A stretch of 64,000 nucleotides of DNA, taken from contig CBDBZU010000004.1 in assembly GCA_965213625.1 (NCBI GenBank), positions 3,680,001 through 3,744,000 on the forward strand, written 5' to 3'. The notes beneath the pieces are model-generated. The model was given only the letters and a program-made list of their open reading frames with translations, made no database searches and was not told the DNA's origin. Below are positions 4,851 through 60,394 of the stretch, piece after piece; position 1 is the stretch's first letter; every line of letters starts with the position of its first letter. The translations under genes and the position numbers were made by a program. Source of the stretch: a bacterium (lineage in GTDB: Bacteria; UBA8248).

Positions 4851-4951
4851 ACACCCTCCGGCAAAGCCGTATCCCGTCGCCGTTATACCGGCATTGCAGG
4901 GTTTTTCAACAACCCCTTCACAGGGGGGTAAAGACGATGTCCCCCCGACGA

Positions 4952-6471
4952 GGGTCTGTTGAAAAACCCGGTGTTGGAAGCGGGCGTTTTGGCGGCTCAC
5001 GCGGCGGCGGGGAGGCAGCCCAATTGGCGCGTGAGGGCGCCATGTGCGCGCAGCCGGCGTCTCCGGGCGGCACAGGCCGTCCAGAGGGCGAATATACGCG
5101 CCGCAAAAGCGGCGGCCAGCCGCTTGAGGTTCACCGCTATCGCCGTCAGGTAGGACTGGATCCGCATGTTCGCAAGGCCCCGGCGCACCGCCCGCCCCAG
5201 TCCGTGCCGGCTCTTCGCCTCGCCGTGGTAGCCCTCCGAGCGCCAACGGTGGCGGCCATAGAGACGCTTCTCCTCCTCCCCCCAGCGCGCATGCCGCCGA
5301 CGCGCGCGCAACAGCGCCGGATACGCGTTGGGAATCAACACCGCCTTGCTCGTTTGCGACTTCGACAGACAATCGGACCTGAGCGCGCAGCCCGCGCAAT
5401 CCCGCGTCTTCGATACATAGGAGCGCCCCCGCTCCGTCGCCTGCCGGGGGCGCAGCGTCTTGCCTCCCGGACACTTCACCACCTCGTTGCGCGCGTCGTA
5501 GTGGAACAACTGCAGCGGAACACGGCTCTGGCTGGGTTCCTTCTTCGCTGGTATCAGCGCTTCCACGCCCCGCCGCTCCAATTCGCCATAAACCTTCGAG
5601 TACGCGTAGCCCGAATCCGCCGTCACCATCTCCGGCGCGCGGCCCGACAACTCGCTTACCGCCTCTATATGGGACGCCATCATCTCACGCTCGTTCCGCG
5701 TCCCCTCCGTCACCGACACGTCGAGAACAACACCCCGCTCATCGTCCACCGCCGCGTGCTGCTTGTAGCTCGGCTCGAACCCCGCCCGCGCGCTCTTGCG
5801 CGCAAGCCGCGCGTCCGGGTCCGTCCGGCTCACCGGACCCCCGCCACCGCGGCCTCCTCCCTTCTTCCCGACCTCATCATCGACGGGATTCTCCTGAATC
5901 ACCTTCTCCGCGTGGTGCGCCGCCAGGCTCTCCCAGCTCACGTCCGCGCGTATCAACGAGGCGTCCACGTGCACCACTTCCCCCTTCGCCACATTCGCCT
6001 CCAGGCAAGCCTGCACCGTGCGACGGAATATCTCCTTGAACCGTGCCTCCCCCCAGCGCTGACGTATCCGCGTCAGGCTCGAATGATGCGGCAACTCCTC
6101 GTGCAGCCCGTACCCGATGAACCACCGGATCGCCAGGTGCGCACGCGCCTCGCGAAGCAGGCGACGGTCGTGAACGTAGCCCAGCAACATACCCGCCAGC
6201 ATCAAGCGGAGCGCCACCTCCGGGTCGATCCCCGGTCGACCGTTATCCGCGCAATAGCAATCCGCCACCTCCTCCCGTAGCCAGCTCAAATCCAGTACGC
6301 GGTCCACGCGCATCAGGACGTGATCCTCGGGGATCAACCGTTCCAGCGAACCGGCCACGAACAAATCCATCTGCTCGCGCCCCTTGCTGCCTATCATCGA
6401 GGGAACTCCCATCTCGGGCGAGATAGTGTCATTACACCCAATCACAATGCCGGGGGTTTTTCAACAGCCCC
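4952..6471 (-). mobile_element. IS1182-family insertion sequence, copy 1 (1520 bp)
   Basis: Terminal IRs GGGTCTGTTGAAAAACCC / GGGTTTTTCAACAGCCCC; GACGA duplicated on both sides; second copy at 58875-60394. Confidence 0.9.
4997..6397 (-). CDS. IS1182-family DDE transposase
   Basis: IPEDH..GRPGIDPE..RWF..PHHSSLTRIR N-terminal signature, VDAS, ADSGY, CxxCxLRxxC, R..SE; start MIGSK. Confidence 0.92.
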   Translation of the reverse strand: MIGSKGREQMDLFVAGSLERLIPEDHVLMRVDRVLDLSWLREEVADCYCADNGRPGIDPEVALRLMLAGMLLGYVHDRRLLREARAHLAIRWFIGYGLHEELPHHSSLTRIRQRWGEARFKEIFRRTVQACLEANVAKGEVVHVDASLIRADVSWESLAAHHAEKVIQENPVDDEVGKKGGGRGGGGPVSRTDPDARLARKSARAGFEPSYKQHAAVDDERGVVLDVSVTEGTRNEREMMASHIEAVSELSGRAPEMVTADSGYAYSKVYGELERRGVEALIPAKKEPSQSRVPLQLFHYDARNEVVKCPGGKTLRPRQATERGRSYVSKTRDCAGCALRSDCLSKSQTSKAVLIPNAYPALLRARRRHARWGEEEKRLYGRHRWRSEGYHGEAKSRHGLGRAVRRGLANMRIQSYLTAIAVNLKRLAAAFAARIFALWTACAARRRRLRAHGALTRQLGCLPAAA

Positions 6472-46127: not shown

Positions 46128-46313
46128 GGACGCCAGAAAATTTACGCGCCTCTTGTCTTTCGCGCGGTTTTTGAGGTTCCTGTCCGTTTGAGGTGTTCAA
46201 CCGATGAGCGTATTTTGGAGAACCAACCTATATTGAATTCCGTAGGGGTCGCATACGGGGTTGCCGAGAAAGATACGGAATCGATTTTGGGTTGCGCGTA
46301 AGCTTTTTAAGTT

Positions 46314-46497
46314 CACTCCCCCCTTGAGGGGGAGTCGATGAAGCCGAGCGATATTTGCGATGGCTGAATCGGTGGGGGGTAAAATGCGTTTTATTGCCAT
46401 ACCGAATCATACCCCCCACCAGTTCACTTTCGGGCTTACGCCCTCAGTTCACTGTCTGGCTTTCCCCTCGGGAAGCCAGACCCTCAAGGGGGGAGTG
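46314..46497. repeat. ~184-bp palindromic element
   Basis: Nearly identical to the reverse complement of 47688-47871. Confidence 0.85.
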
Positions 46498-46531
46498 GTT
46501 GGTTGGCGCTCTGCAAGGAGGGAGTATCGAC

Positions 46532-47537: not shown

Positions 47538-48042
47538 GTAGGGGCGGACCGATGTGTTAGCCCTGTTGTTTGATTCCCCTCGTTTCACTAGGGACGAACT
47601 CGTAGGGGCGGACTCCTTCTCGGGTCCGCCCCACAGCTCGCGAGCCGCCCCTACGGAATCTCTACCTCCTCAAGTGTTGGCGAAAACCACTCCCCCCTTG
47701 AGGGTCTGGCTTCCCGAGGGGAAAGCCAGACAGTGAACTGAGGGTGTAAGCCCGAAAGTGAACTGGTGGGGGGTATGATTCGGAATAGCAATAAAACGCA
47801 TTTTACCCCCCACCGATTCAGCCTTCGCAAATATCGCTCGGCTTCATCGACTCCCCCTCAAGGGGGGAGTGATTATTATTAGCACAGCTATTTCTGGATT
47901 CCGGCATTCGCCGGAATGACGAACATCTACGTCTCAGGGATTGTAGGGACAGGCCCCTGTGCCTGTTCTGATCGCTTCCTCCTTGAAGCAGGACAACCAC
48001 GGGGGGCAGGGACGACCCCGAAGAGGGGCTCGTCCCCACTAC
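47538..48042. repeat. Cluster of mixed palindromic repeats (REPs, 184-bp element, RPE-like half)
   Basis: GTAG REPs at 47538, 47602-47654 and 47943-48042; 184-bp element at 47688-47871. Confidence 0.8.
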
Positions 48043-48786: not shown

Positions 48787-49278
48787 GGGCGGCTCGCGAG
48801 CCGCCCCTACAAGAAGAAAATCCCTTTTACTTTGGCGTTATCGAATACTCCCCCCTTGAGAGTCAAACCCGACTTGGTAGGGAGAACCTGTTTATTTGTA
48901 GGGGTCGCATACCATGCGACCCGCGGTTGGGCGACGAAAGAATCAGGCCGCAACATATGGGGTTGTTGAAAAACCCCGGATACGGCCCCGCAATTGCAGG
49001 CGGTGAATGCGGCGTAATACTCCCACTCGTCCTGCGCTGTCTGCCACTCCGCCTCACCCTGAGTAGCGGCGAAGCCGCGTATCGAAGGGCGAAGTTCGCG
49101 CCCGCAGGAGAGATACGCCGCCCATCCTTCGATACAGCGCTTGCGCGCCTACTCAGGATGAGGGTTGGGGACGCTTGCTCAGGATGAAGGCGTCAGGGGT
49201 TCCGCGAAGCCTGCTGCCGCGCCGGTGGGGCAGACCCTCCCGCATAGGGTTTTCAACAACCCTCAAGGGGGGAGTGAT
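48787..49278. repeat. Cluster of mixed repeats including an IS1182-end element (48959-49263) and a CACCCTGAG..TCGAAGGG element (49052-49163)
   Basis: REP 48787-48810, REP at 48898, GGGGTTGTTGAAAAA ... TTTTCAACAACCC, inverted CCTCACCCTGAGTAG/CTACTCAGGATGAGG. Confidence 0.7.
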
Positions 49279-49429
49279 TCTCCTCTCCACCCGGAGTTCA
49301 TATGGAATCTCTTCTCCCCCAGCCTGCCTTGCGGTCGTTCCCTTGCGGGGCCACAATGCGCCCGCCTGTTCCTGCAAGGCGCTGAGGTGGTCCCATATCC
49401 GAATTTCAATGACGAAAAAGGGAGACGCC

Positions 49430-50425
49430 ATGAGCAAGCCGTCCATCGCGATAGTGACGACCGGGGGGACGATATCGTCCAAATACGACACGCGCGGAGG
49501 GGAGAACGTACCTGCGGCGAGCGCGGAGGAGTTGGTCGCATCCGTTCCCGAGCTTGCGGGTGCGGCCCAGGTGCGCGTCGTCGAGCACTCGAACGTCACC
49601 AGCGACGTGATGGAGACGGCTACCGCCTTTGGGCTCCGCGACCGCCTGCGCGGGATTCTGGCGGATGAGGAAACAGCGGGGGCCGTGATCACACACGGGA
49701 CGGCCACGATGGAGGAGACGGCCTATCTGTTGGACTTGACCCTGGGCGGTGAGAAGCCCGTGGTGATTACGGGCGCGATGCGCAATTCCGTCGCCCGTGA
49801 CGCGGACGGTCCCCGGAACATCTTCTACGCAGCGAAGATAGCGGCCTCCCCCGAAGCGCGGGGCCGGGGCGTGACGGTCGCGCTGGACGGCGAGATATTC
49901 GCCGCGCGCGACGTCATCAAGGTGCACAGCCAGCGGCCCCACGCCTTTGCGTCGAGAGACGGCGGGCCCATCGGCGTGGTTTCGGATGAGGGCGTCTTTT
50001 TTCACTACCGCCCGGAGCGGCGGCTCCACTTCGAGGTGGACACCGTGAAGGAAAACGTGCAGTTCCTCACCGTGACCCAGGGGGTGAACGACCTGCTCGT
50101 GCGCGCGTGCATCAAAGAGGGGGTGGACGGCATCGTGGTGGAGGGCGTCGGCGCGGGCAACGTGAACGTGCCCTTCCACCACGCCCTGTGCGACGCGCTC
50201 GATGCGGGAATCCCCGTGGTGATCGGGGTGCGCATCTTCGCAGGCGCGCCGCACCGCGCGAAGGCGCATGAGGGCTCTTTCCGCAGCCTGATCGAGCGCG
50301 GGGCGATTTCGGCAGGCTACCTGAGCGGCATCAAGGCCCGGACCCTGCTGATGGTGGCGCTGGCGCACACGCAGGATTCGGGAGAGCTGCAGGATATTTT
50401 CGAGCGCGCCGGCGGACGAGCCTGA
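49430..50425 (+). CDS. L-asparaginase family protein
   Basis: TTGGTI, THGTATMEET, ITGAMR; GGGAG RBS before MSKPS. Confidence 0.9.
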   Translation: MSKPSIAIVTTGGTISSKYDTRGGENVPAASAEELVASVPELAGAAQVRVVEHSNVTSDVMETATAFGLRDRLRGILADEETAGAVITHGTATMEETAYLLDLTLGGEKPVVITGAMRNSVARDADGPRNIFYAAKIAASPEARGRGVTVALDGEIFAARDVIKVHSQRPHAFASRDGGPIGVVSDEGVFFHYRPERRLHFEVDTVKENVQFLTVTQGVNDLLVRACIKEGVDGIVVEGVGAGNVNVPFHHALCDALDAGIPVVIGVRIFAGAPHRAKAHEGSFRSLIERGAISAGYLSGIKARTLLMVALAHTQDSGELQDIFERAGGRA

Positions 50426-51985: not shown

Positions 51986-52999
51986 TCATATCTTCCTGAG
52001 CTCCGGGATGAGTTCGTCCGAGATCATCCGCATGCTGTGAAGCGCCGTGGAAAGCGGCATTCCCGCCCAGTGCGTACGGATGATGAGATGGCTCATGCCG
52101 ACTTCCTCCCAGTAGGGGCGAAGCTGCTCGTAGCACTCCTCGGGCGAGCCGATGATGAAGCGATCTTTCAGCAAATCGTCGAATTCATGGTCGAAGCTCT
52201 CATCATCCGGCATGGCGTCGTCCTGTCCCCACTTGGCGTAATCCTGGTACTTGCCGAACAGATAAGGCCCCGCCATCTCGAGGGCGGTCTTCCTGTCGTG
52301 GCTGCAGAAAATCTCCTTCATGCAGGGGAAATCCGCCGGGAACGGCTTGCCGCATCGATCCAGTTCCGCGCGGTAGAGGGTCATCTGCCGCTTGATGGTC
52401 GCCGTGGTGGAATGCGGGTTGATGAACCAGTTGTCGCCGATGCGCGCTGCTCGCTCGATGGCCTTGTCGTTGTTCGCCGCCACCCAAATGGGTGGATAGG
52501 GCTTCTGCACGGGGCGGATGTTCATGCGCACGCCGTCCAGCTTGCAGATCTCATCCTCCCAGGTCACCTCCTCCTCCGTCCAGAGGCGCTTCACGAGTTC
52601 GAGGCACTCCTCGAAGCGGCGCACGCGCTGTCCCTTCGGCACCTGGAAGGCGTCGAACTCCGCCTTGCGGTAGCCGAGCCCGATGCCGAACACGAAGTTC
52701 CCCCGGCAGAGCACGTCCATCGTCGCCACCGTCTCGGCCACGTATACCGGGTTGTGGAGGTTGATGAGCAGGATGCCGAGCCCGAGCGTCATCTCGCCCG
52801 CTTCGGCCTGCAGCCGCGCGAGGAACGGCACTATCTGGAGCTGTTTGTTGTCGCCCTCGTTCAGGTAGTGCTGCCCGGTGAAGAGCGAGTCCCAGCCCTT
52901 GTCGCGCGCGAGGCGCACCATGGCGTACTGCTCGTCCAGGGCGCTGACCATGTCGGTTTCCAGGTGCTGCTGGTTGGTGATGAAGAGCCCTACTTTCAT
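51986..52999 (-). CDS. LLM-class flavin-dependent oxidoreductase
   Basis: GQHY, NPVYVAE..ATMD, GIGLGYR..EF, RPVQKPYPPIW. Confidence 0.9.
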   Translation of the reverse strand: MKVGLFITNQQHLETDMVSALDEQYAMVRLARDKGWDSLFTGQHYLNEGDNKQLQIVPFLARLQAEAGEMTLGLGILLINLHNPVYVAETVATMDVLCRGNFVFGIGLGYRKAEFDAFQVPKGQRVRRFEECLELVKRLWTEEEVTWEDEICKLDGVRMNIRPVQKPYPPIWVAANNDKAIERAARIGDNWFINPHSTTATIKRQMTLYRAELDRCGKPFPADFPCMKEIFCSHDRKTALEMAGPYLFGKYQDYAKWGQDDAMPDDESFDHEFDDLLKDRFIIGSPEECYEQLRPYWEEVGMSHLIIRTHWAGMPLSTALHSMRMISDELIPELRKI

Positions 53000-53360
53000 G
53001 TCACGTTCCCTATATGTAAGTGGATGGTTGGAGGCTACCATACCGCAAGGTCCTTCATATTTCTATGCTGGGGAGGCTTTACTGCATGATGGAAGGGGGA
53101 GAGGGGAACTGCGGGGAAATGCGGGGTGCGAAAAAACTTTTTTTATTCGAAAAAATTCGATAAAATATTCTTCTTCTGCTTGAATCCATTCTCATAACCG
53201 ACTGAAATAATATCGGTTACTCCTTCGATTTCCTTGCCGTTCGTTTTCAGATATTTATCGAAAAACCCCGTGAATTTATCGATATTTACAGGAAATACGA
53301 TTATTTTCATATTCATTGTGAGCCCCGAGTCCATGAATACCCCTCCCCGGCGAGAAAAAG

Positions 53361-54065
53361 CCCCCCTGACAAGGGGGGTTGGGGGGTTCGCCGCCTTCAC
53401 TCTCGCCGCATCACTGAATTCCATGAGAAAGCCTCCGCGCCTTTTGTCAATTCCGACTGAGAAAGAAGGAATCGACCAACTCATGCGGGAGAAATCGTTT
53501 TCCCGCGACGCGCGCACGATAGCGGAATACGGGGTTAGTGGGAGTACGGCAATTGCGGGGAAATGCGGGGTCAATTTCGGGTGAAGTACGTGGGTTTGCC
53601 GATTGAGGTGCTTGTAGGGACAACCCCCCGTGGTTGTCCTTCGTCAGGGTTGGCGCCATAAAACCGGGCGGACACAGGGGTCCGCCCCTACAAACCGCGA
53701 ATCGAGATTACCGTCATTCCGGCGCATGCCGGAATCCAGAACGAATTTGGTAGGCGCTTTACGGCGTTTCATCCGCCTTCTGTGCAGTCAGGCTGCCGAA
53801 AGAAAAGAATGTCATAGGCGAAACCCCTGGATTCCGGCATACGCCGGAATGACGAGGCTTTGAAACACTCCCCCTTGAGGGTCAATCCCGATTGAAGAAT
53901 GAGGGATTGTCGGTGAAGCCGAGCGATTTGTGCGAAGATTGAATCGGTGGGGGGACAATCGCGACTGATGAAGAAGTGATTGCATACATGTAGGGGCGAA
54001 CCCCTTTATCCGCCCTATGGCGTAAGAGGGTAAAGATACCGTAGGGGCGGCTCGCGAGCCGCCCG
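53361..54065. repeat. Cluster of mixed palindromic repeats left of the sirtuin gene
   Basis: CCCCCCTGACAAGGGGGG at 53361, REP doublet 53614-53691, RPE-like 53712-53854, partial 184-bp element, REPs at 53990 and 54041. Confidence 0.8.
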
Positions 54066-54114
54066 TGTGGTCCAGGCAACCAAGAAAGGACGAAAAGTAT
54101 GACGTACCTTGAAT

Positions 54115-57100
54115 TTATCCAAGTCCCAGACTTGCGCGAAGCTCTTCCAGTTTCTCCTTGAAATCATCCGGGATGTCGGATGCGACGAGTTTCTCGACAA
54201 GCGCCTTGCCTCCATGCCACGCATATGATGGCGATTCACACCCGCCTATATGAATCAATAACTTCGCAACCGCCTCCGGATAGCGTTGCCACAAATCAGA
54301 CAGATTGATATCAGAAACTAACAAGCCACGTTGGAGCGGAACTTTCGGCATACGAACCGCCAAGTCGACTGCTTCGGGAAACATATTGCCTTGTAAGCAG
54401 GAAGACCATTCAAGCATGCTTTCGATTTCACCGGAATCGAGTTGTCTGGGAATTCCTTGCAGGCGATTTTCCCAATACTGCTTGAGCCAACGTGACCACC
54501 ATTCCCGTTGTCCCTCTTCATTCATATGAAGAAGACTTTGGTGTATTTGTGTTGCGAAATAATTCCGGTCCTCTTCACCAGCATAATCAAATAACCTGGG
54601 AATCCAAACTTCAAGAGGCTCATCGACAAAATAGGCAAGCATTTTGATATAGGCATTGATGAATACTTCACGTCGATGCCCATCAAAATATGTACCTTGG
54701 ATATGAGGAACAGCCTCAAAAAAAGCATCCTTCATCAACTCGGCCACGGACTGGCTGAGTGATGCATATTGGAAACCATCCCATACCGCCTGAATTTCAC
54801 CTATATTGTCATGCGCTTTGAAAGAGGGCAGCAAATTCTCTTTCGTCCATTTTTTATCGACCACCAACAAAAAAGGAAGCTGGCTTGCGAGAACAGATCG
54901 CCCCAATCTACCAATCAGAGATTCATCTTGAGCGATGCAAGAAAGCGCGTCGTAATAAACGCCGCTCAGTGAATCAGGCATTGGGTCTTGTTGTCTTCGC
55001 CACAAAGACAAACTTCCAAGCCAGTATTCAGCGATCTTACCGCCAGCGTGGTTGATGGCATAGCTGTCCCAATTAGATGGATTTTCAAACTGTTCATCGC
55101 GGTCTAAATGTTCCCATAATCCTAGGGCAATCTCGTTGGCTTCTCGAAGCAAAGTAGGCGCATAAGGCACACCGCCGTTCCTTACGAGCGAATAAAGGAA
55201 ATCCGCAATCCAATGAGCGTGTTTCCGATATAGTTTGTTTCTATCCAATCGGAAGAGTACTTGGCGATGTGCATACTCGGTTAACTCATTCGACCACGCA
55301 CGAATCAGAATTGGCCAAAGATCGGTATCCCACTCACTGCGCTTAACCAATTCATCAGCTAGTTCGATGCCCCATTTAAAATTCTGCTTTGCCGCACCCT
55401 CGACAACAAGAACGAGTCCCTCACGGTTAGGGCCGAGAATATCTATCGGTTGGAAAGACAATAGATCATCCACCCAATCTTTCGCCGGTCGTGCCAGCAG
55501 TCCCTCTACACTCCAAGGACTTTGAGTGCCACTTCCTGTACTGGACCAAGACAATAGATCTGGGTATTCCCTTTGTTGAAAATTAGGATATTGCTTCGAT
55601 ATTTCGTTTAGAGCATTTTGAGCAAGAGTACAGTCGGGATCGGAACGATTTAGCCAATGAAGCCACGTGAAATGTTGATATGAGGTACGCTGCTCCTTAT
55701 TTTCATCTTCAGGATTGGGCCAAGAAAATGCGTGCACGGACTTTATGATGGCTTTGCGCCGTTTCGAGTCGGCATTGGGATAAGCTTTTTCCAGAAACAT
55801 AAACACTTCATGACGCGCCGGAGTATCGTGCAAATCCATGCGAGTCAGAAGCCAGTCAATTTTCTCGTTTGGAGTCAAATCTTCGCGTTTAAGCAATATA
55901 TGTACCGCCAATCGACGCAATAATGGCGCATCCGAGTCGATAAGCTGGTCGCACCATCGCGCCGCCACCTCAGGCCGATTTGATAACAAATATTCCAGAG
56001 AATCTCGGGCCGCATCAATCAATACATCTACAGTCCCTGGAATTCTATCCTGTTCATGAGGTTCGATTGCGCTACGACGAAAACTTGCTGGTTCATAAAT
56101 GCGTGACGCTTTCCCCCAAGAGCAGAGAGTGTGGAATTGCGCTGACAATTGCTCGACAACGCTTGTGAGCAGCGGGGCAACTAAGTTGTCGAGGTTCGGT
56201 TTTAGTCCTTTTTCCCAGAGTTCGTTGACCTCATAATGATCACTGAGTGATGACAATTCCACCCGGACAGATGGGCGTGGGTTTTCCTTCTCGTCATCGG
56301 ACAAATGAAAACCTCGCTCAATCTTGAGACAGCCAGCCGCACAAGTGATGAAAATTTCGAGAAGACTAGTCATCAATCCCGTTTCAATGCAACGATTTCC
56401 CAACCATAAAAACACGTGCTTATACGGCCGCGCTGGAACAGTAGCAAGTAATAATGAAACCCAACTCGATAAGTTTTTTTCGTCTATTGGCGTATTGTTT
56501 TGCAATCCGATAGTGCGTCCTAACACAAACCAGAAGGTTGGATGCAATTGCATCTCGTGTCGACCAATAAGTAGAAAAAGTGAATCTGAGTGTTCACATG
56601 CAAAAGTATTTGCTAACCACTCCGCCAGTTCGCGTTTATGTTCACTCAATTCACCAACGCCAAAGAGGCTGTCGAGATACTTACGTTGATCGAGCCAGTC
56701 GATCCATTCAGGCGATAAGGCGGCATTAGTGAAGAACCGTGCTTTCGCTTCGTCCAAGAACGCGTCTTCAATGAGGCACATCTCCTCCTCGTTAAGTGAG
56801 GGTGGTTTCCCAGCAATCTCCGTTATTTCACGCTGCCAGCCTAGAATGCCACGTGTTGAATAACTGGCAAGACGTTGGATGCCAAGGTAAAGACTACAAT
56901 GTTGGTCACCAGCAACTCTTTCATAGATAATCGGTTTAATACCGAGAATTTGCCATCGGTCACTTATAGCTTCGGTCGTAATCGCAAAACGCCCTTTTGT
57001 TTCACTAGTTGTTAAGGCCCGGGCCAGATATTTCATAATCGTGTCGTCGTGACTGTAGCCGACAAAGAGAACGGTAAAATTGCGGAAGAGTTCGACGAGA

Positions 57101-57654
57101 AAACGCCCTGCCCATCCATCGCTTAGGTATGCGCGACCAAAATCTGCGTCAGTCAACACCATGTCTAAAGGATGGCTGACTGCACCATGAAGGTGGACAA
57201 TTCCGTTGAAATCTCGTCCTAAAGGAAGTGCCGGAGCGCGAAACACTTCGGGATTCGGGTCGAAAATATCTTGTGCTGCCCTCTCGAATAACAATTCGAA
57301 GTTCGTCGTTACGATTCGAGTCGATTCCGTTTTGGAATATAGCCGTAGCAGATCACGGTGCAATTCGTTCGGCTTTGAATTTTTGTTAGAGAGTATCTCA
57401 GAGGCTAACTCATGCACTTTCGTGCCTCTTTCCTTTTTTAGCCTGCCGAGAAATTGATCATCAGTTTCACCATCTTTCTGTGTTTCTCCTGTACCTCGTG
57501 CGATCAATTTTGTTAAACACTTAAAATTCGGGAGATTCGCCGGTTTTCCCATCGAAACGCCTGCACCCGCGAAAACGACCAGCTTGTTGTCTCGCAGGGC
57601 GTCCAATAATTCTCTCGGAAAATCAATGCCTGCAATTTTCACTCTTGACTCCAA
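54115..57654 (-). CDS. SIR2-domain protein with long helical C-terminus (Dsr1-like, SIR2_2 + DUF4020 architecture), probable anti-phage defence
   Basis: VFAGAGVS, TTNF, HLHG, LFVGYS.DD; C-terminal W..WL..YWENRLQGIP; 1179 aa; AT-richer than the host. Confidence 0.8.
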   Translation of the reverse strand: MESRVKIAGIDFPRELLDALRDNKLVVFAGAGVSMGKPANLPNFKCLTKLIARGTGETQKDGETDDQFLGRLKKERGTKVHELASEILSNKNSKPNELHRDLLRLYSKTESTRIVTTNFELLFERAAQDIFDPNPEVFRAPALPLGRDFNGIVHLHGAVSHPLDMVLTDADFGRAYLSDGWAGRFLVELFRNFTVLFVGYSHDDTIMKYLARALTTSETKGRFAITTEAISDRWQILGIKPIIYERVAGDQHCSLYLGIQRLASYSTRGILGWQREITEIAGKPPSLNEEEMCLIEDAFLDEAKARFFTNAALSPEWIDWLDQRKYLDSLFGVGELSEHKRELAEWLANTFACEHSDSLFLLIGRHEMQLHPTFWFVLGRTIGLQNNTPIDEKNLSSWVSLLLATVPARPYKHVFLWLGNRCIETGLMTSLLEIFITCAAGCLKIERGFHLSDDEKENPRPSVRVELSSLSDHYEVNELWEKGLKPNLDNLVAPLLTSVVEQLSAQFHTLCSWGKASRIYEPASFRRSAIEPHEQDRIPGTVDVLIDAARDSLEYLLSNRPEVAARWCDQLIDSDAPLLRRLAVHILLKREDLTPNEKIDWLLTRMDLHDTPARHEVFMFLEKAYPNADSKRRKAIIKSVHAFSWPNPEDENKEQRTSYQHFTWLHWLNRSDPDCTLAQNALNEISKQYPNFQQREYPDLLSWSSTGSGTQSPWSVEGLLARPAKDWVDDLLSFQPIDILGPNREGLVLVVEGAAKQNFKWGIELADELVKRSEWDTDLWPILIRAWSNELTEYAHRQVLFRLDRNKLYRKHAHWIADFLYSLVRNGGVPYAPTLLREANEIALGLWEHLDRDEQFENPSNWDSYAINHAGGKIAEYWLGSLSLWRRQQDPMPDSLSGVYYDALSCIAQDESLIGRLGRSVLASQLPFLLVVDKKWTKENLLPSFKAHDNIGEIQAVWDGFQYASLSQSVAELMKDAFFEAVPHIQGTYFDGHRREVFINAYIKMLAYFVDEPLEVWIPRLFDYAGEEDRNYFATQIHQSLLHMNEEGQREWWSRWLKQYWENRLQGIPRQLDSGEIESMLEWSSCLQGNMFPEAVDLAVRMPKVPLQRGLLVSDINLSDLWQRYPEAVAKLLIHIGGCESPSYAWHGGKALVEKLVASDIPDDFKEKLEELRASLGLG

Positions 57655-57670
57655 TAGCTACTCAAGTCAC

Positions 57671-57748
57671 CGGGCGGCTCGCGAGCCGCCCCTACGGGTA
57701 GAGAGAGATATTCGACCAGACCGGGCGGACACATCGGTCCGCCCCTAC
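57671..57748. repeat. Two inverted GTAG-REPs right of the sirtuin gene
   Basis: CGGGCGGCTCGCGAGCCGCCCCTACGG and GGGCGGACACATCGGTCCGCCCCTAC. Confidence 0.85.
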
Positions 57749-57849: not shown

Positions 57850-58620
57850 TCACACAAACAACCTAACCCCCGGAAACACCTCCTCCCTCCTCAGGTCCGT
57901 CTCGTCGTGTCCGGCGAAGATGAGGTCGGGCGCGTCGGCCAGGTCCTTCACGGTCTCGAGCGCGCGCAGGGCGTCGTCCACGTGGATGTGGATGCCCGGC
58001 GGTATCATGGATTCGAGGCTCCGGTAGAGATAGGCCGCGTCCACGGCCAGCACCGCCCAGCCCCGCGCCGTGCGGAAGCGGATGATCTGGTGGCCCGGCG
58101 TGTGGCCGCCCACCCAGTGGACATGCACGCCCTCCGCTATCTCCGCCTCCCCGTCCACGAGATTCATGCGGCCTGCTTCAAGTAGCCGCTCGGCTTCTTC
58201 CAAATCGCCCAGGAAATGGTTGATGAAGTGGTATTCCGCCGCGTCGCTCCGCCAGAAATCAAGCTCGCGCCTCTGGAGATAAAAGCGCGCCCCGGTGAAC
58301 AGCCTCGGGGACATGAAGTGGTCCCAATGCAGATGGCTCACGATCATCGTCTCGACTTCCGAGGGTTTGAGATCGAAATGCTTCAGCAATTCATGCTGCG
58401 GGCGGTAGTCCGCGTAATCCGGGTTCCGCGCCTTCTGGGATTCCTCGCTGAAGCCGGTGTCGATAACGACCGGCGCGCCCCCGCCTTCGGGCATCAGCAC
58501 CCAGAAGAAATAGGGCAGCGTGCGCGTCCTCCCCGATTCACTCAAGTAAAGGAGCCAGGAGGCGTCGCACGCGCGCGAGCCCTGGCACAGGGCGTAGAGG
58601 TTGTAGGTCGTCTCGCTCAA
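57850..58620 (-). CDS. Metallo-beta-lactamase-fold hydrolase (N-acyl homoserine lactonase-like family)
   Basis: IDTG, SHLHWDH, GHTPGHQ, AGHD; GGAGG before TTG. Confidence 0.87.
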   Translation of the reverse strand: MSETTYNLYALCQGSRACDASWLLYLSESGRTRTLPYFFWVLMPEGGGAPVVIDTGFSEESQKARNPDYADYRPQHELLKHFDLKPSEVETMIVSHLHWDHFMSPRLFTGARFYLQRRELDFWRSDAAEYHFINHFLGDLEEAERLLEAGRMNLVDGEAEIAEGVHVHWVGGHTPGHQIIRFRTARGWAVLAVDAAYLYRSLESMIPPGIHIHVDDALRALETVKDLADAPDLIFAGHDETDLRREEVFPGVRLFV

Positions 58621-58874
58621 GGTGATACCTCCGTGTTGTCCCGCTCGAAGGGATAGTTGGAAAAGTCCACAGAAGGAGCTCTCTAAATTTCACTCCCCCT
58701 TGAGGATGAATCACAATCATCGAAAGAGGAAATTCACTCCCCCCTTGAGGGGGAGTCAGTGAAGCCGAGCGATTTGTGCGAAGGCTGAATCGGTGGGGGG
58801 ACATGCCACAGAAAAAGCTCCCCCCACCAGTTCGCCTGCGGGCTTGTGCCCTTAGCTCACTGACTCCCCCTCAG

Positions 58875-60394
58875 GGGTCTGTTGAAAAACCCGGTGTTGG
58901 AAGCGGGCGTTTTGGCGGCTCACGCGGCGGCGGGGAGGCAGCCCAATCGGCGCGTGAGGGCGCCATGTGCGCGCAGCCGGCGTCTCCGGGCGGCACAGGC
59001 CGTCCACAAGGCGAATATACGCGCCGCAAAAGCGGCGGCCAGCCGCTTGAGGTTCACCGCTATCGCCGTCAGGTAGGACTGGATCCGCATGTTCGCAAGG
59101 CCCCGGCGCACCGCCCGCCCCAGTCCGTGCCGGCTCTTCGCCTCGCCGTGGTAGCCCTCCGAGCGCCAACGGTGGCGGCCATAGAGACGCTTCTCCTCCT
59201 CCCCCCAGCGCGCATGCCGCCGACGCGCGCGCAACAGCGCCGGATACGCGTGCGGAATCAACACCGTCCTGCTCGTGCGCGACTTCGACAGACAATCGGG
59301 CCTGAGCGCGCAGCCCGCGCAATCCCGCGTCTTCGATACATAGGAGCGCCCCCGCTCCGTCGCCTGCCGGGGGCGCAGCGTCTTGCCTCCCGGACACTTC
59401 ACCACCTCGTTGCGCGCGTCGTAGTGGAACAACTGCAGCGGAACACGGCTCTGGCTGGGTTCCTTCTTCGCTGGTATCAGCGCTTCCACGCCCCGCCGCT
59501 CCAATTCGCCATAAACCTTCGAGTACGCGTACCCCGAATCCGCCGTCACCATCTCCGGCGTGCGGCCCGACAACTCGCTTACCGCCTCTATATGGGACGC
59601 CATCATCTCACGCTCGTTCCGCGTCCCCTCCGTCACCGACACGTCGAGAACAACACCCCGCTCATCGTCCACCGCCGCGTGCTGCTTGTAGCTCGGCTCG
59701 AACCCCGCCCGCGCGCTCTTGCGCGCAAGCCGCGCGTCCGGGTCCGTCCGGCTCACCGGACCCCCGCCACCGCGGCCTCCTCCCTTCTTCCCGACCTCAT
59801 CATCGACGGGATTCTCCTGAATCACCTTCTCCGCGTGGTGCGCCGCCAGGCTCTCCCAGCTCACGTCCGCGCGTATCAACGAGGCGTCCACGTGCACCAC
59901 TTCCCCCTTCGCCACATTCGCCTCCAGGCAAGCCTGCACCGTGCGACGGAATATCTCCTTGAACCGTGCCTCCCCCCAGCGCTGACGTATCCGCGTCAGG
60001 CTCGAATGATGCGGCAACTCCTCGTGCAGCCCGTACCCGATGAACCACCGGATCGCCAGGTGCGCACGCGCCTCGCGAAGCAGGCGACGGTCGTGTACGT
60101 AGCCCAGCAACATACCCGCCAGCATCAAGCGGAGCGCCACCTCCGGGTCGATCCCCGGACGACCGTTATCCGCGCAATAGCAATCCGCCACCTCCTCCCG
60201 TAGCCAGCTCAAATCCAGTACGTGGTCCACGCGCATCAGGACGTGATCCTCGGGGATCAGCCGTTCCAGCGAACCGGCCACGAACAAATCCATCTGCTCG
60301 CGCCTCTTGCTGCCTATCATCGAGGGAACTCCCATCTCGGGCGAGATAGTGTCATTACACCCAATCACAATGCCGGGGCTTTTTCAACAGCCCC
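58875..60394 (-). mobile_element. IS1182-family insertion sequence, copy 2 (1520 bp)
   Basis: Same IRs as copy 1; flanks CTCAG/CTCAA inside an ACTCCCCC-TCAA-GGGGGGAGT hairpin. Confidence 0.9.
58920..60320 (-). CDS. IS1182-family transposase
   Basis: Differs from 4997-6397 at only about nine amino acids. Confidence 0.92.
   Translation of the reverse strand: MIGSKRREQMDLFVAGSLERLIPEDHVLMRVDHVLDLSWLREEVADCYCADNGRPGIDPEVALRLMLAGMLLGYVHDRRLLREARAHLAIRWFIGYGLHEELPHHSSLTRIRQRWGEARFKEIFRRTVQACLEANVAKGEVVHVDASLIRADVSWESLAAHHAEKVIQENPVDDEVGKKGGGRGGGGPVSRTDPDARLARKSARAGFEPSYKQHAAVDDERGVVLDVSVTEGTRNEREMMASHIEAVSELSGRTPEMVTADSGYAYSKVYGELERRGVEALIPAKKEPSQSRVPLQLFHYDARNEVVKCPGGKTLRPRQATERGRSYVSKTRDCAGCALRPDCLSKSRTSRTVLIPHAYPALLRARRRHARWGEEEKRLYGRHRWRSEGYHGEAKSRHGLGRAVRRGLANMRIQSYLTAIAVNLKRLAAAFAARIFALWTACAARRRRLRAHGALTRRLGCLPAAA

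Follow-up and report, generated by a model that had tools for sequence, protein, structure and literature searches.

The Dsr1-like sirtuin gene that lies between two inverted REP pairs in the analysed window (64,000 nucleotides of genome G000, set against a comparison set of 23 genomes of the genus) occupies a small defence hotspot shared across the genus, and it seems to travel together with neighbouring host DNA, not as a REP-bounded cassette. On balance we favour, with somewhat better than even confidence, an exchange of hotspot cargo by homologous and homology-facilitated recombination in which REP tails are frequent joining points. The REP pair would then be the mark of past junctions and not the ends of an autonomous or RAYT-excised unit. 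The arrangement described in the initial annotation is confirmed, and its interpretation finds partial support.

Functionally, the SIR2 gene (54115–57654, minus strand; single copy per genome) is probably an accessory anti-phage gene with a predicted NAD+-depleting product. Read from its TTG codon it encodes 1179 aa, with an N-terminal SIR2 domain (PF13289) and a weak DUF4020 match; the PADLOC Dsr1 profile recovers the protein with an E-value of 1.5e-71, its score against the NCBIfam Dsr1 model NF041818 is 291.5 bits, under the curated cut-off of 1400, and it shares 24% identity with an annotated Dsr1 across 98% of its length. It is thus a distant Dsr1-like sirtuin, well short of the Dsr1 cut-off. 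The catalytic Asn and His are present; these residues, N118 and H156, are invariant in the alignment with the annotated Dsr1 and, judged by motifs, would be equivalent to N133 and H171 of DSR2. Dsr1 (10.1101/2021.12.14.472415) is likewise one gene of about 1,200 aa with an N-terminal SIR2 domain bearing catalytic-type Asn and His, but the C-terminal part of the present protein has diverged, and its function here is predicted from sequence. The probable start is a GTG at 57642, with GGAG 6 nt upstream, giving a product of 1175 aa; a Latescibacteria homologue begins at the matching residue.

The inner repeats, REPs of subtype C1, lie at 54039–54065 (plus strand) and 57671–57697 (minus strand), with their hairpin tails toward the SIR2 stop and start codons, respectively. 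Alignment of the two arms bears out the perfect 27-bp inverted repeat of the initial annotation, being exact reverse complements whose match ends there, and the sole long ORF between them is indeed the AT-richer SIR2 gene (GC 0.466 versus 0.592 for the window). The annotated distances of 49 bp from stop codon to REP (54066–54114) and 16 bp from the TTG start are also correct, but the likelier GTG start leaves 28 bp. A second inverted pair does lie outside the first, formed by type D REPs at 53990–54015 (plus strand, GTAG outward) and 57723–57748 (minus strand), yet it is imperfect, with 21 of 26 positions matching when counted by eye. Short empty doublets occur in the window as well, including a head-out doublet of types A and D at 53614–53691 within a repeat-rich trailer, but these are mostly of other or mixed REP types. 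The inner repeats have the features of GTAG-type REPs (GTAG 5' of a short GC-rich hairpin, extragenic position, multiple copies) and, as in a REPIN, are two inverted REPs from one group; the short spacer and whole-unit hairpin of a REPIN are absent, as a 3.6-kb coding region separates arms that stop at 27 bp. A wider scan returned 295 copies of GTAG hairpins in G000, where just five pattern matches genome-wide belong to subtype C1.

The site is framed by two conserved host genes, a luciferase-like monooxygenase gene on the left (LLM; 51986–53041, minus strand; PF00296; 23/23 genus genomes) and a metallo-beta-lactamase-fold gene on the right (MBL; 57850–58620, minus strand; PF00753; 22/23). The two are linked within 11 kb in 17 genomes of the genus, where their spacing ranges from 1.0 to 10.3 kb, and the intervening DNA holds, genome by genome, type III, type II or type ISP restriction-modification genes, DUF4062 genes, CHAT/TPR genes, or nothing (the survey at MBL left out G005 and G021, and the stretch examined in G004, G007, G010 and G018 was without the LLM marker). 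With near-universal flanks around variable, defence-rich cargo and no single type of mobile element, the MBL-LLM site is a genus-wide defence hotspot, its slot syntenic and its cargo differing between genomes. It resembles cDHS1 and cDHS2 of Pseudomonas aeruginosa, which are described (PMC10250203) with conserved core flanks, highly variable defence cargo, no one mobile element, and a proposed spread via homologous recombination in the flanks; the MBL-LLM hotspot is far smaller, at 1–10 kb, no tRNA or tmRNA marker came to notice in passing, and its junctions are marked by REP tails and host gene-end relics. The outer type D element at 57723–57748 recurs 3' of the MBL stop codon in empty alleles (e.g. 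G011, G012 and G016). Empty doublets had been anticipated at the orthologous site; the alleles without cargo there carry other repeats and single REPs, and no clean C1 doublet.

A second REP-flanked SIR2 copy, in G003, lies at a different locus with the same ends and spacings: both C1 elements stand at equal distances from the gene, the 49-bp spacer is homologous, and a decayed counterpart of the type D REP at 53990–54015 is found behind the gene. Homology between G000 and G003 crosses both REP pairs, continuing into the 3' end of MBL on one side and the LLM-side trailer on the other, and beyond the REPs the G003 copy carries roughly 200 bp from the end of the MBL gene plus downstream host DNA. 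These host flanks outside both pairs rule out an independent REP-bounded insertion in G003, and the unit borders do not fall exactly at the repeats as they would in a MITE-bounded composite. Neither the G003 copy nor most hotspot cargo, which has no REP junction, supports the idea of a REP-bounded unit that moves alone. The gene without REPs in relatives had been named beforehand as an argument against that idea, and such cases were in spirit found: the SIR2 copy of G020, with DNA about 90% identical to that of G003, lacks both REPs and spacer, and five of five homologues outside the genus have no adjacent REPs. The MBL 3' end (57850–58048) is itself found displaced, as copies of 65–198 bp that precede defence cargo elsewhere in relatives; seven extra copies occur in 5 of the 23 genomes, each 5' of hotspot-type cargo and with differing left borders, and arfB relics occur likewise. 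Moved cargo thus bears pieces of the host gene formerly upstream. Five of the seven relic junctions (about three independent events) sit 0–80 bp beyond a REP tail, one of these five within the 3' arm of the REP.

The link between foreign DNA and REPs is specific to subtype and polarity. Across the genus, C1 has its tail toward a foreign gene in 32 of 63 copies and its head side in 8 of 63, where a foreign ORF is defined heuristically (GC below 0.58 and no near match among G000 host genes, with genes called by an in-house script) and the frame may be spurious in a few calls, e.g. L138, L139 and L150. By site cluster, the count is 15 tail-to-foreign versus 1 head-to-foreign (L159 is absent from the tail set, its cluster already scoring tail). 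For the sister subtype C2 the tail faces foreign DNA in 0/11 copies and the head in 1/11, and neither C2 nor the commoner types A and B are linked to foreign DNA. In several genomes, C1 tails lie 0–50 bp from cargo stop codons; inspection by eye revealed no dinucleotide common to the C1-tail junctions. In G000, AT-rich DNA adjoins 11 of 113 tail-facing versus 6 of 227 head-facing cluster edges (p 0.007; genome background 7%). Ends of low-GC genes in that genome are more rarely REP-adjacent than host ends (14/846 versus 163/4360), and the whole-genome orientation test of low-GC versus host genes gave no significant difference (p 0.18). REPs next to host genes are placed head-first in 102 cases versus 39.

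About 2,600 genes were scored in G000, and SIR2 alone has REPs turning their tails to it from no more than 200 bp away on each side, against a chance expectation of about 0.2 such genes by hand calculation. On whether inverted flanking exceeds what REP density predicts, the answer is divided: flanking by any REP type is, alone, not significant, and chance accounts less readily for a pair of one subtype, with 8 head-out pairs at 0.5–8 kb (the SIR2 case counted) versus 1.4 expected under uniform placement. Defence or foreign genes do lie between other inverted copies of this REP, with C1 head-out pairs enclosing a type ISP restriction-modification system, another Dsr1-like sirtuin, an HEC-01 ATPase/DUF4276 pair and a ZorB-like block. 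Out of 20 loci, 11 were analysed (L075–L083, mostly head-in controls, were left out), and four of these hold host genes only.

Cargo junctions at other hotspots point in more than one direction. At the arfB hotspot, three unrelated cargos share a single promoter-plus-REP leader, homology between the alleles ceases where the REP tail ends, and in G004 the site holds an empty doublet; these observations go against our preferred reading. Over three hotspots, about 29 of 39 cargo alleles were scored as having a host-side junction free of REPs; inspection by eye does show a REP in 2 of the 29. Genomes with the same cargo (G011/G012, G022/G008, G000/G003) also have the REP in common, at a matching position and either intact or in decay, and at one site G000 and G008 have homologous cargo with differing REPs alongside. 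Fused GTAG-core-CTAC palindromes were considered as empty sites after cargo loss and rejected: the 78 fused class-C copies are mostly C2, and only two fused sites are C1, the one in G016 lying in a rearranged allele and not at the matching junction.

Mechanistically, the initial annotation proposed a RAYT acting in trans, and RAYT-type genes are present, with an intact one elsewhere in G000 (C4:1978566–1979099), but this gene is flanked by REP types A and B, and among 30 RAYT loci C1 is near two and brackets none, leaving C1 with no cognate RAYT in that set. That such an enzyme excises the entire REP-SIR2-REP stretch and reinserts it, as a non-autonomous element in the manner of an oversized REPIN, we regard as very improbable. 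Its perfect 27-bp ends, their recurrence with equal spacings at the G003 locus and the intact RAYT would all fit; opposed to it are the host DNA outside both REP pairs of G003, the single copy per genome, and the described REPIN spacers of just 18–112 bp, which form hairpins (PMC3337134, Table 2). The predicted excised or circular junction did not appear either: contigs of 4 of the 23 listed runs, which drop rare variants, gave no credible REP-to-REP excision joint, one contig only, from run X2, reads across REP-SIR2-REP, and apparent joints had only 20–21 letters on one side and stem from other REP copies. The system is otherwise like the REP/REPIN-RAYT systems of PMC3337134, PMC3733652 and PMC8266576 (GTAG-headed hairpins, head-out doublets, hundreds of copies, an HUH Y1 gene in the genome), differing in its 3.6-kb gene as spacer and in the excision joint and cognate RAYT, neither of which was found.

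RAYT-assisted capture is a tentative alternative, in which the HUH enzyme would nick single-stranded DNA immediately 3' of a REP hairpin, joining the REP tail to incoming DNA; doublets or fused palindromes would be dispersed, integron-like entry points, and ordinary recombination would spread the cargo afterwards. The tail polarity of C1 and its absence from C2, the arfB leader with its different cargos and empty doublet, and the relic junctions just past REP tails all speak for it, as does cleavage by TnpA-REP at CT, 5' or 3' of the REP, with strand transfer in vitro (PMC8266576). Genomes G009, G010, G015 and G019 have neither class-C REPs nor a RAYT match, a co-absence in favour of capture, yet their hotspot cargo still varies; G011 has 84 class-C hits and no RAYT match with the query used. 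The failure of C1 to bracket RAYT genes, the missing common dinucleotide and the G000-wide comparisons of low-GC genes weigh against it too. Unlikelier still is that the pattern is a by-product of REP placement, with REPs settling head-first behind host genes and colonising relaxed intergenic DNA of hotspots, later cargo landing on the tail side, REPs turning over beside resident cargo, and the pair arising by coincidence. The head-first excess beside host genes, the single two-sided gene, the differing REPs of G000 and G008 and the pair loci with host genes only are consistent with this, but C2, A and B show no such link, C1 tails lie close to cargo stops in several genomes, and common cargo has a common REP at the same place.

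For exchange by homologous and homology-facilitated recombination, we envisage that a foreign ORF would be joined non-homologously to host DNA, often at a REP hairpin tail or slightly beyond it; hairpins might be nicked by RAYT, break, or give short homology. The gene would then spread through homologous exchange within the conserved flanks, or else through homology-facilitated illegitimate recombination (HFIR), with homology at one end and a short-homology join at the other, and this would leave gene-end relics and tandem arrays. The varied cargo between MBL and LLM, the homology of G000 and G003 through both REP pairs, the MBL and arfB relics, the many host-side junctions free of REPs and the REP-free G020 copy all speak for this reading. 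Transcripts of SIR2 would arise as read-through from MBL, their probable source; a consensus scan found no sigma-70-like site between the two genes. Plain homologous exchange does not predict the tail polarity, and an extra step, that junctions favour REP tails, is therefore needed. ComEC and DprA are present, which makes the route plausible only, because both families also match in 10–11 of 14 controls. None of the recombination events was seen directly. Precedents are the cDHS loci and the HFIR-built effector/immunity arrays of the Vibrio cholerae T6SS, the latter showing (PMC5361080) tandem accretion, a homologous anchor with an illegitimate end, and gene-end remnants; here the remnant is the upstream host gene end, brought by the incoming piece, and cargo moves among several hotspots with junctions near REPs.

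Other systems share single features. Integron mobilisation units and MITE-flanked integrons (PMC3184786) hold cargo between two small non-coding repeats with the enzyme in trans, but their ends are 288–439-bp MITEs with terminal inverted repeats in place of 24-bp hairpins, and mobility of a REP-bounded unit is not supported here. The promoterless single ORF recalls an integron gene cassette, by analogy only. A RAYT role in accessory-gene diversification was proposed from genomic association for TnpA-REP and prochlorosins (10.1101/2020.03.09.984088), where the transposase gene itself adjoins variable genes; the same authors subsequently report that they lack strong evidence for a causal link. 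Our search of the open-licence literature found no published account of REP-bounded defence cargo.

Two questions converge at these loci, namely how core defence hotspots acquire new genes when no integrase is at hand, and through what benefit RAYT/REP systems persist in genomes, the latter given as unknown (PMC3337134). In this genus, several small hotspots are available in many allelic forms whose junctions can be read, along with a subtype-specific REP polarity toward foreign genes and gene-end relics that record movement. It is conceivable, though doubtful, that one REP subtype and a trans-acting RAYT make up a dispersed gene-capture system in which nicked REP tails join incoming single-stranded DNA, and similarly doubtful that the doublets found behind core genes serve anti-phage genes as programmed points of entry; if so, domesticated RAYTs would gain a sought-after host-beneficial function. 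If the ordinary reading holds, the genus would provide a clear natural case in which homology-facilitated recombination passes defence genes from hotspot to hotspot.

The inner REP arms (54039-54065, forward; 57671-57697, reverse) are exact inverted copies, as the initial annotation had held for this 27-bp repeat, and enclose a single AT-richer ORF (54115-57654, reverse; GC 0.466 versus 0.592 in the window). The second, outer inverted pair that it described (53990-54015 and 57723-57748) does exist, but is imperfect, with 21 of 26 positions identical (counted by hand). GTAG hairpins number 295 in the source genome, G000, and fall into several sequence types (named A, B, C1, C2, and D in the present analysis); the inner pair is of the rare subtype C1 (five pattern matches genome-wide), and the outer copies are of type D. 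The SIR2 gene probably starts at the GTG at 57642, with a GGAG 6 nt upstream and in the same position as a homologue's start. A consensus scan found no sigma-70-like site between the ORF and the upstream metallo-beta-lactamase-fold gene (MBL; 57850-58620, reverse), so the SIR2 gene is likely transcribed by read-through from MBL. Elsewhere in the window, two small genes lie between the arms of an inverted repeat from another family (188 bp, 98%; 46313-46500 and 47685-47872).

Functionally, the predicted protein has SIR2_2 at its N terminus and matches DUF4020 below threshold, and its best-scoring defense models were those of Dsr1. It aligns with an annotated Dsr1 at 24% identity across 98% of its length, its closest Atlas clusters comprise SIR2 proteins 1174-1194 aa long, and an alignment of this protein, the annotated Dsr1, and four further homologues showed N118 and H156 to be invariant. 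According to 10.1101/2021.12.14.472415, DSR1 transiently depletes NAD+ upon infection, and DSR2 requires N133 and H171. Given the Dsr1 alignment, the invariant residues, and the SIR2 domain, the protein most likely acts like Dsr1; we do not file it as a Dsr1 member, because its 291.5 bits fall below the model cut-off of 1400.

The gene lies between MBL and a luciferase-like monooxygenase gene (LLM; 51986-53041, reverse), which occur in 22 and 23 of the 23 genus genomes, respectively, and are 1.0-10.3 kb apart in 17. This gap contains type III, type II, or type ISP restriction-modification genes, DUF4062, CHAT/TPR, RNase H-like or helicase genes, asparaginase, or repeats only, with the SIR2 gene found in G000 alone of the 17, and the site shows the tested features of a core defense hotspot as outlined in PMC10250203. 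Two more hotspots, one following arfB and the other a DUF523/DUF1722 gene, show the same behavior. Among assembled sequencing runs, X9 has a diverged SIR2 copy on a contig running on into MBL, X6 has diverged SIR2 pieces, and X5 has the flanks with the SIR2 gene almost uncovered. The asparaginase gene, located beyond LLM in G000 (49175-50425), falls within the MBL-LLM gap in several relatives, and thus the region is locally rearranged. A DDE/DUF772 transposase gene sits upstream of MBL (58861-60368), with a partial second copy near 4938-5237 and further copies in hotspots.

Close SIR2 homologues were found in two others of 41 genomes searched, G003 and G020. The G003 copy (61-62% amino-acid identity), split across two contigs behind the DUF523 gene, shares the C1 REPs; its short spacers are homologous, and its outer REPs have decayed. 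Movement of a REP-bounded cassette into G003 was considered and rejected, since homology extends outward past the REPs into host DNA on both sides, covering the last ~200 bp of MBL on one and the LLM-side trailer on the other; the moved piece was a slice of the hotspot and not a REP-bounded unit. The G020 copy is frameshifted and ~90% identical in DNA to that of G003, with homology stopping at the ORF borders, and it is REP-free, which speaks against the REP-bounded unit initially proposed. Outside the genus, none of five SIR2 homologues had an adjacent REP.

The MBL 3′ end recurs as seven additional fragments (65-198 bp, with differing left borders) in five of the 23 genomes, all preceding hotspot-type cargo (loci L041, at G013:C1:531500-544200, L065, L073, L266, and L270). 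G013 has two in tandem inside its own hotspot, together with a putative asparaginase end read by eye, and G014 and G022 harbor relics of arfB (L092, L093). Such relics would fit the residue expected of homology-facilitated illegitimate recombination, as described in PMC5361080. ComEC and DprA are present, which makes transformation possible and nothing more. Five of the seven relic junctions lie 0-80 bp beyond a REP tail (the hairpin side away from the GTAG head), representing about three independent events, too few for testing.

Consecutive class-C pairs at 0.5-8 kb, among 155 non-fused copies in the contigs tallied, were head-out (GTAG outward) in eight cases, including the SIR2 gene, versus 1.4 expected under uniform placement; two were head-in, and three and three were direct. 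In a survey of 11 such head-out loci, along the lines initially suggested, most pairs with C1-type ends held genes of foreign origin (a type ISP enzyme, a HEC-01 pair, a ZorB-like block, a pentapeptide gene, an AdoMet-decarboxylase/DUF3326 block, and methyltransferases); four loci with C2 ends held ordinary host genes, and one locus was mixed. With foreign ORFs called heuristically and related genomes not independent, a foreign ORF flanked the tail of C1 copies in 32 cases and the head in eight (63 non-fused copies with both flanks, from 72 loci fetched), and the corresponding counts for C2 copies were zero and one (11 non-fused, 21 loci); by 26 site clusters, C1 polarity was 15 tail to one head (p 0.0005). 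At arfB, one promoter-like, REP-ended leader precedes three unrelated cargos, and in G004 this site holds an empty doublet of two REPs spaced 7 bp apart.

Several further loci bear description. The leader in L057-L063 (sigma-70-like promoter by eye, REP at its end) is conserved before unrelated cargos behind arfB, namely Dsr1-like, type ISP, the AdoMet-decarboxylase/DUF3326 block, and another SIR2-like gene, and is relocated to the MBL hotspot in G013 (L063). Cargo stop codons fall within or directly at a REP in L072 and L040 (G008) and in L039 (G022), the TAG in G008 being supplied by the GTAG of a fused palindrome. In G011, a four-gene block (L065:3316-8163), whose stop abuts a C1 REP, comprises three genes with no Pfam or PADLOC match and a terminal ZorB/OmpA-like gene, and is possibly an undescribed Zorya-like system. 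In a G013 defense hotspot, inverted REPs surround a three-gene cargo of an unknown membrane-type protein, an AdoMet decarboxylase, and DUF3326 (L071:3153-6234), a candidate new defense system. AT-rich genes also lie inside mixed-type head-out pairs at G000 C4:2512524-2514003 and 3115703-3118114.

We lean, with some reserve, toward a scenario in which a foreign ORF would be joined into the slot with junctions near REP tails and afterwards swapped, along with adjoining host DNA, through homologous and homology-facilitated recombination; the REPs would mark the junctions. That a RAYT made these junctions is conceivable but doubtful. TnpA-REP cleaves in vitro at CT beside a REP and performs strand transfer (PMC8266576), and a search for a RAYT, as initially suggested, recovered an intact Y1/HUH gene of 177 aa (C4:1978566-1979099) and a broken near-copy at ~3,374,500, both below the NCBIfam RAYT cut-off. 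The G000 RAYT is matched in 18 of 23 genus genomes. All four genomes that lack class-C REPs belong to the five with no match; the remaining one, G011, gave 84 class-C hits. REP types A and B, but not C1, border the intact gene, and a RAYT cognate to the inner REP did not emerge: C1 lay near two of 30 genus RAYT loci and bracketed none. Most genus RAYT genes have a REP or REP pair within their own CDS, in a variable insert region (L001:1453-1986, L214-L243).

An improbable reading makes the bracket a by-product of REP placement, against which the C1 polarity has to be set. REPs next to host genes turn their heads toward them in 102 cases and the opposite way in 39, by which alone later arrivals would end up tail-side. 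Of 39 cargo alleles called at the three hotspots, 29 had a REP-free host-side junction (two of the 29 carry an intact or decayed REP by eye, and one 'head' score is a tail), and hotspots still vary in genomes without RAYT or class-C REPs. In G000, low-GC gene ends adjoin REPs less often than host ends (14/846 versus 163/4360), and the one doubly flanked gene, versus ~0.2 expected, is not significant. Least probable by far is an oversized REPIN moved whole, despite the exact inner arms. The spacer is not that of a REPIN and the borders are not the exact ones of MITE-bounded composites, as PMC3337134 and PMC3184786 define them. In run X2, one contig spans the SIR2 cassette. Of the excised junctions that the initial annotation had proposed to look for, no credible example came up in four assembled runs, whose contigs drop rare variants; the apparent REP-to-REP joints have 20-21 letters on one side and thus derive from other REP copies.

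The consulted parts of PMC3733652, PMC5581495, 10.1101/279083, and 10.1101/2021.07.10.451892 treat REP dimers and RAYT groups with no defense cargo in them, and 10.1101/2020.03.09.984088, likewise consulted in part, puts forward and then tempers a diversifying role of TnpA-REP; we found no report of REP-bounded defense genes in the main texts of open-licence literature. A bold but testable extension, which we consider rather unlikely, is that C1 REPs, with a RAYT acting in trans, would form a dispersed capture system for anti-phage genes.
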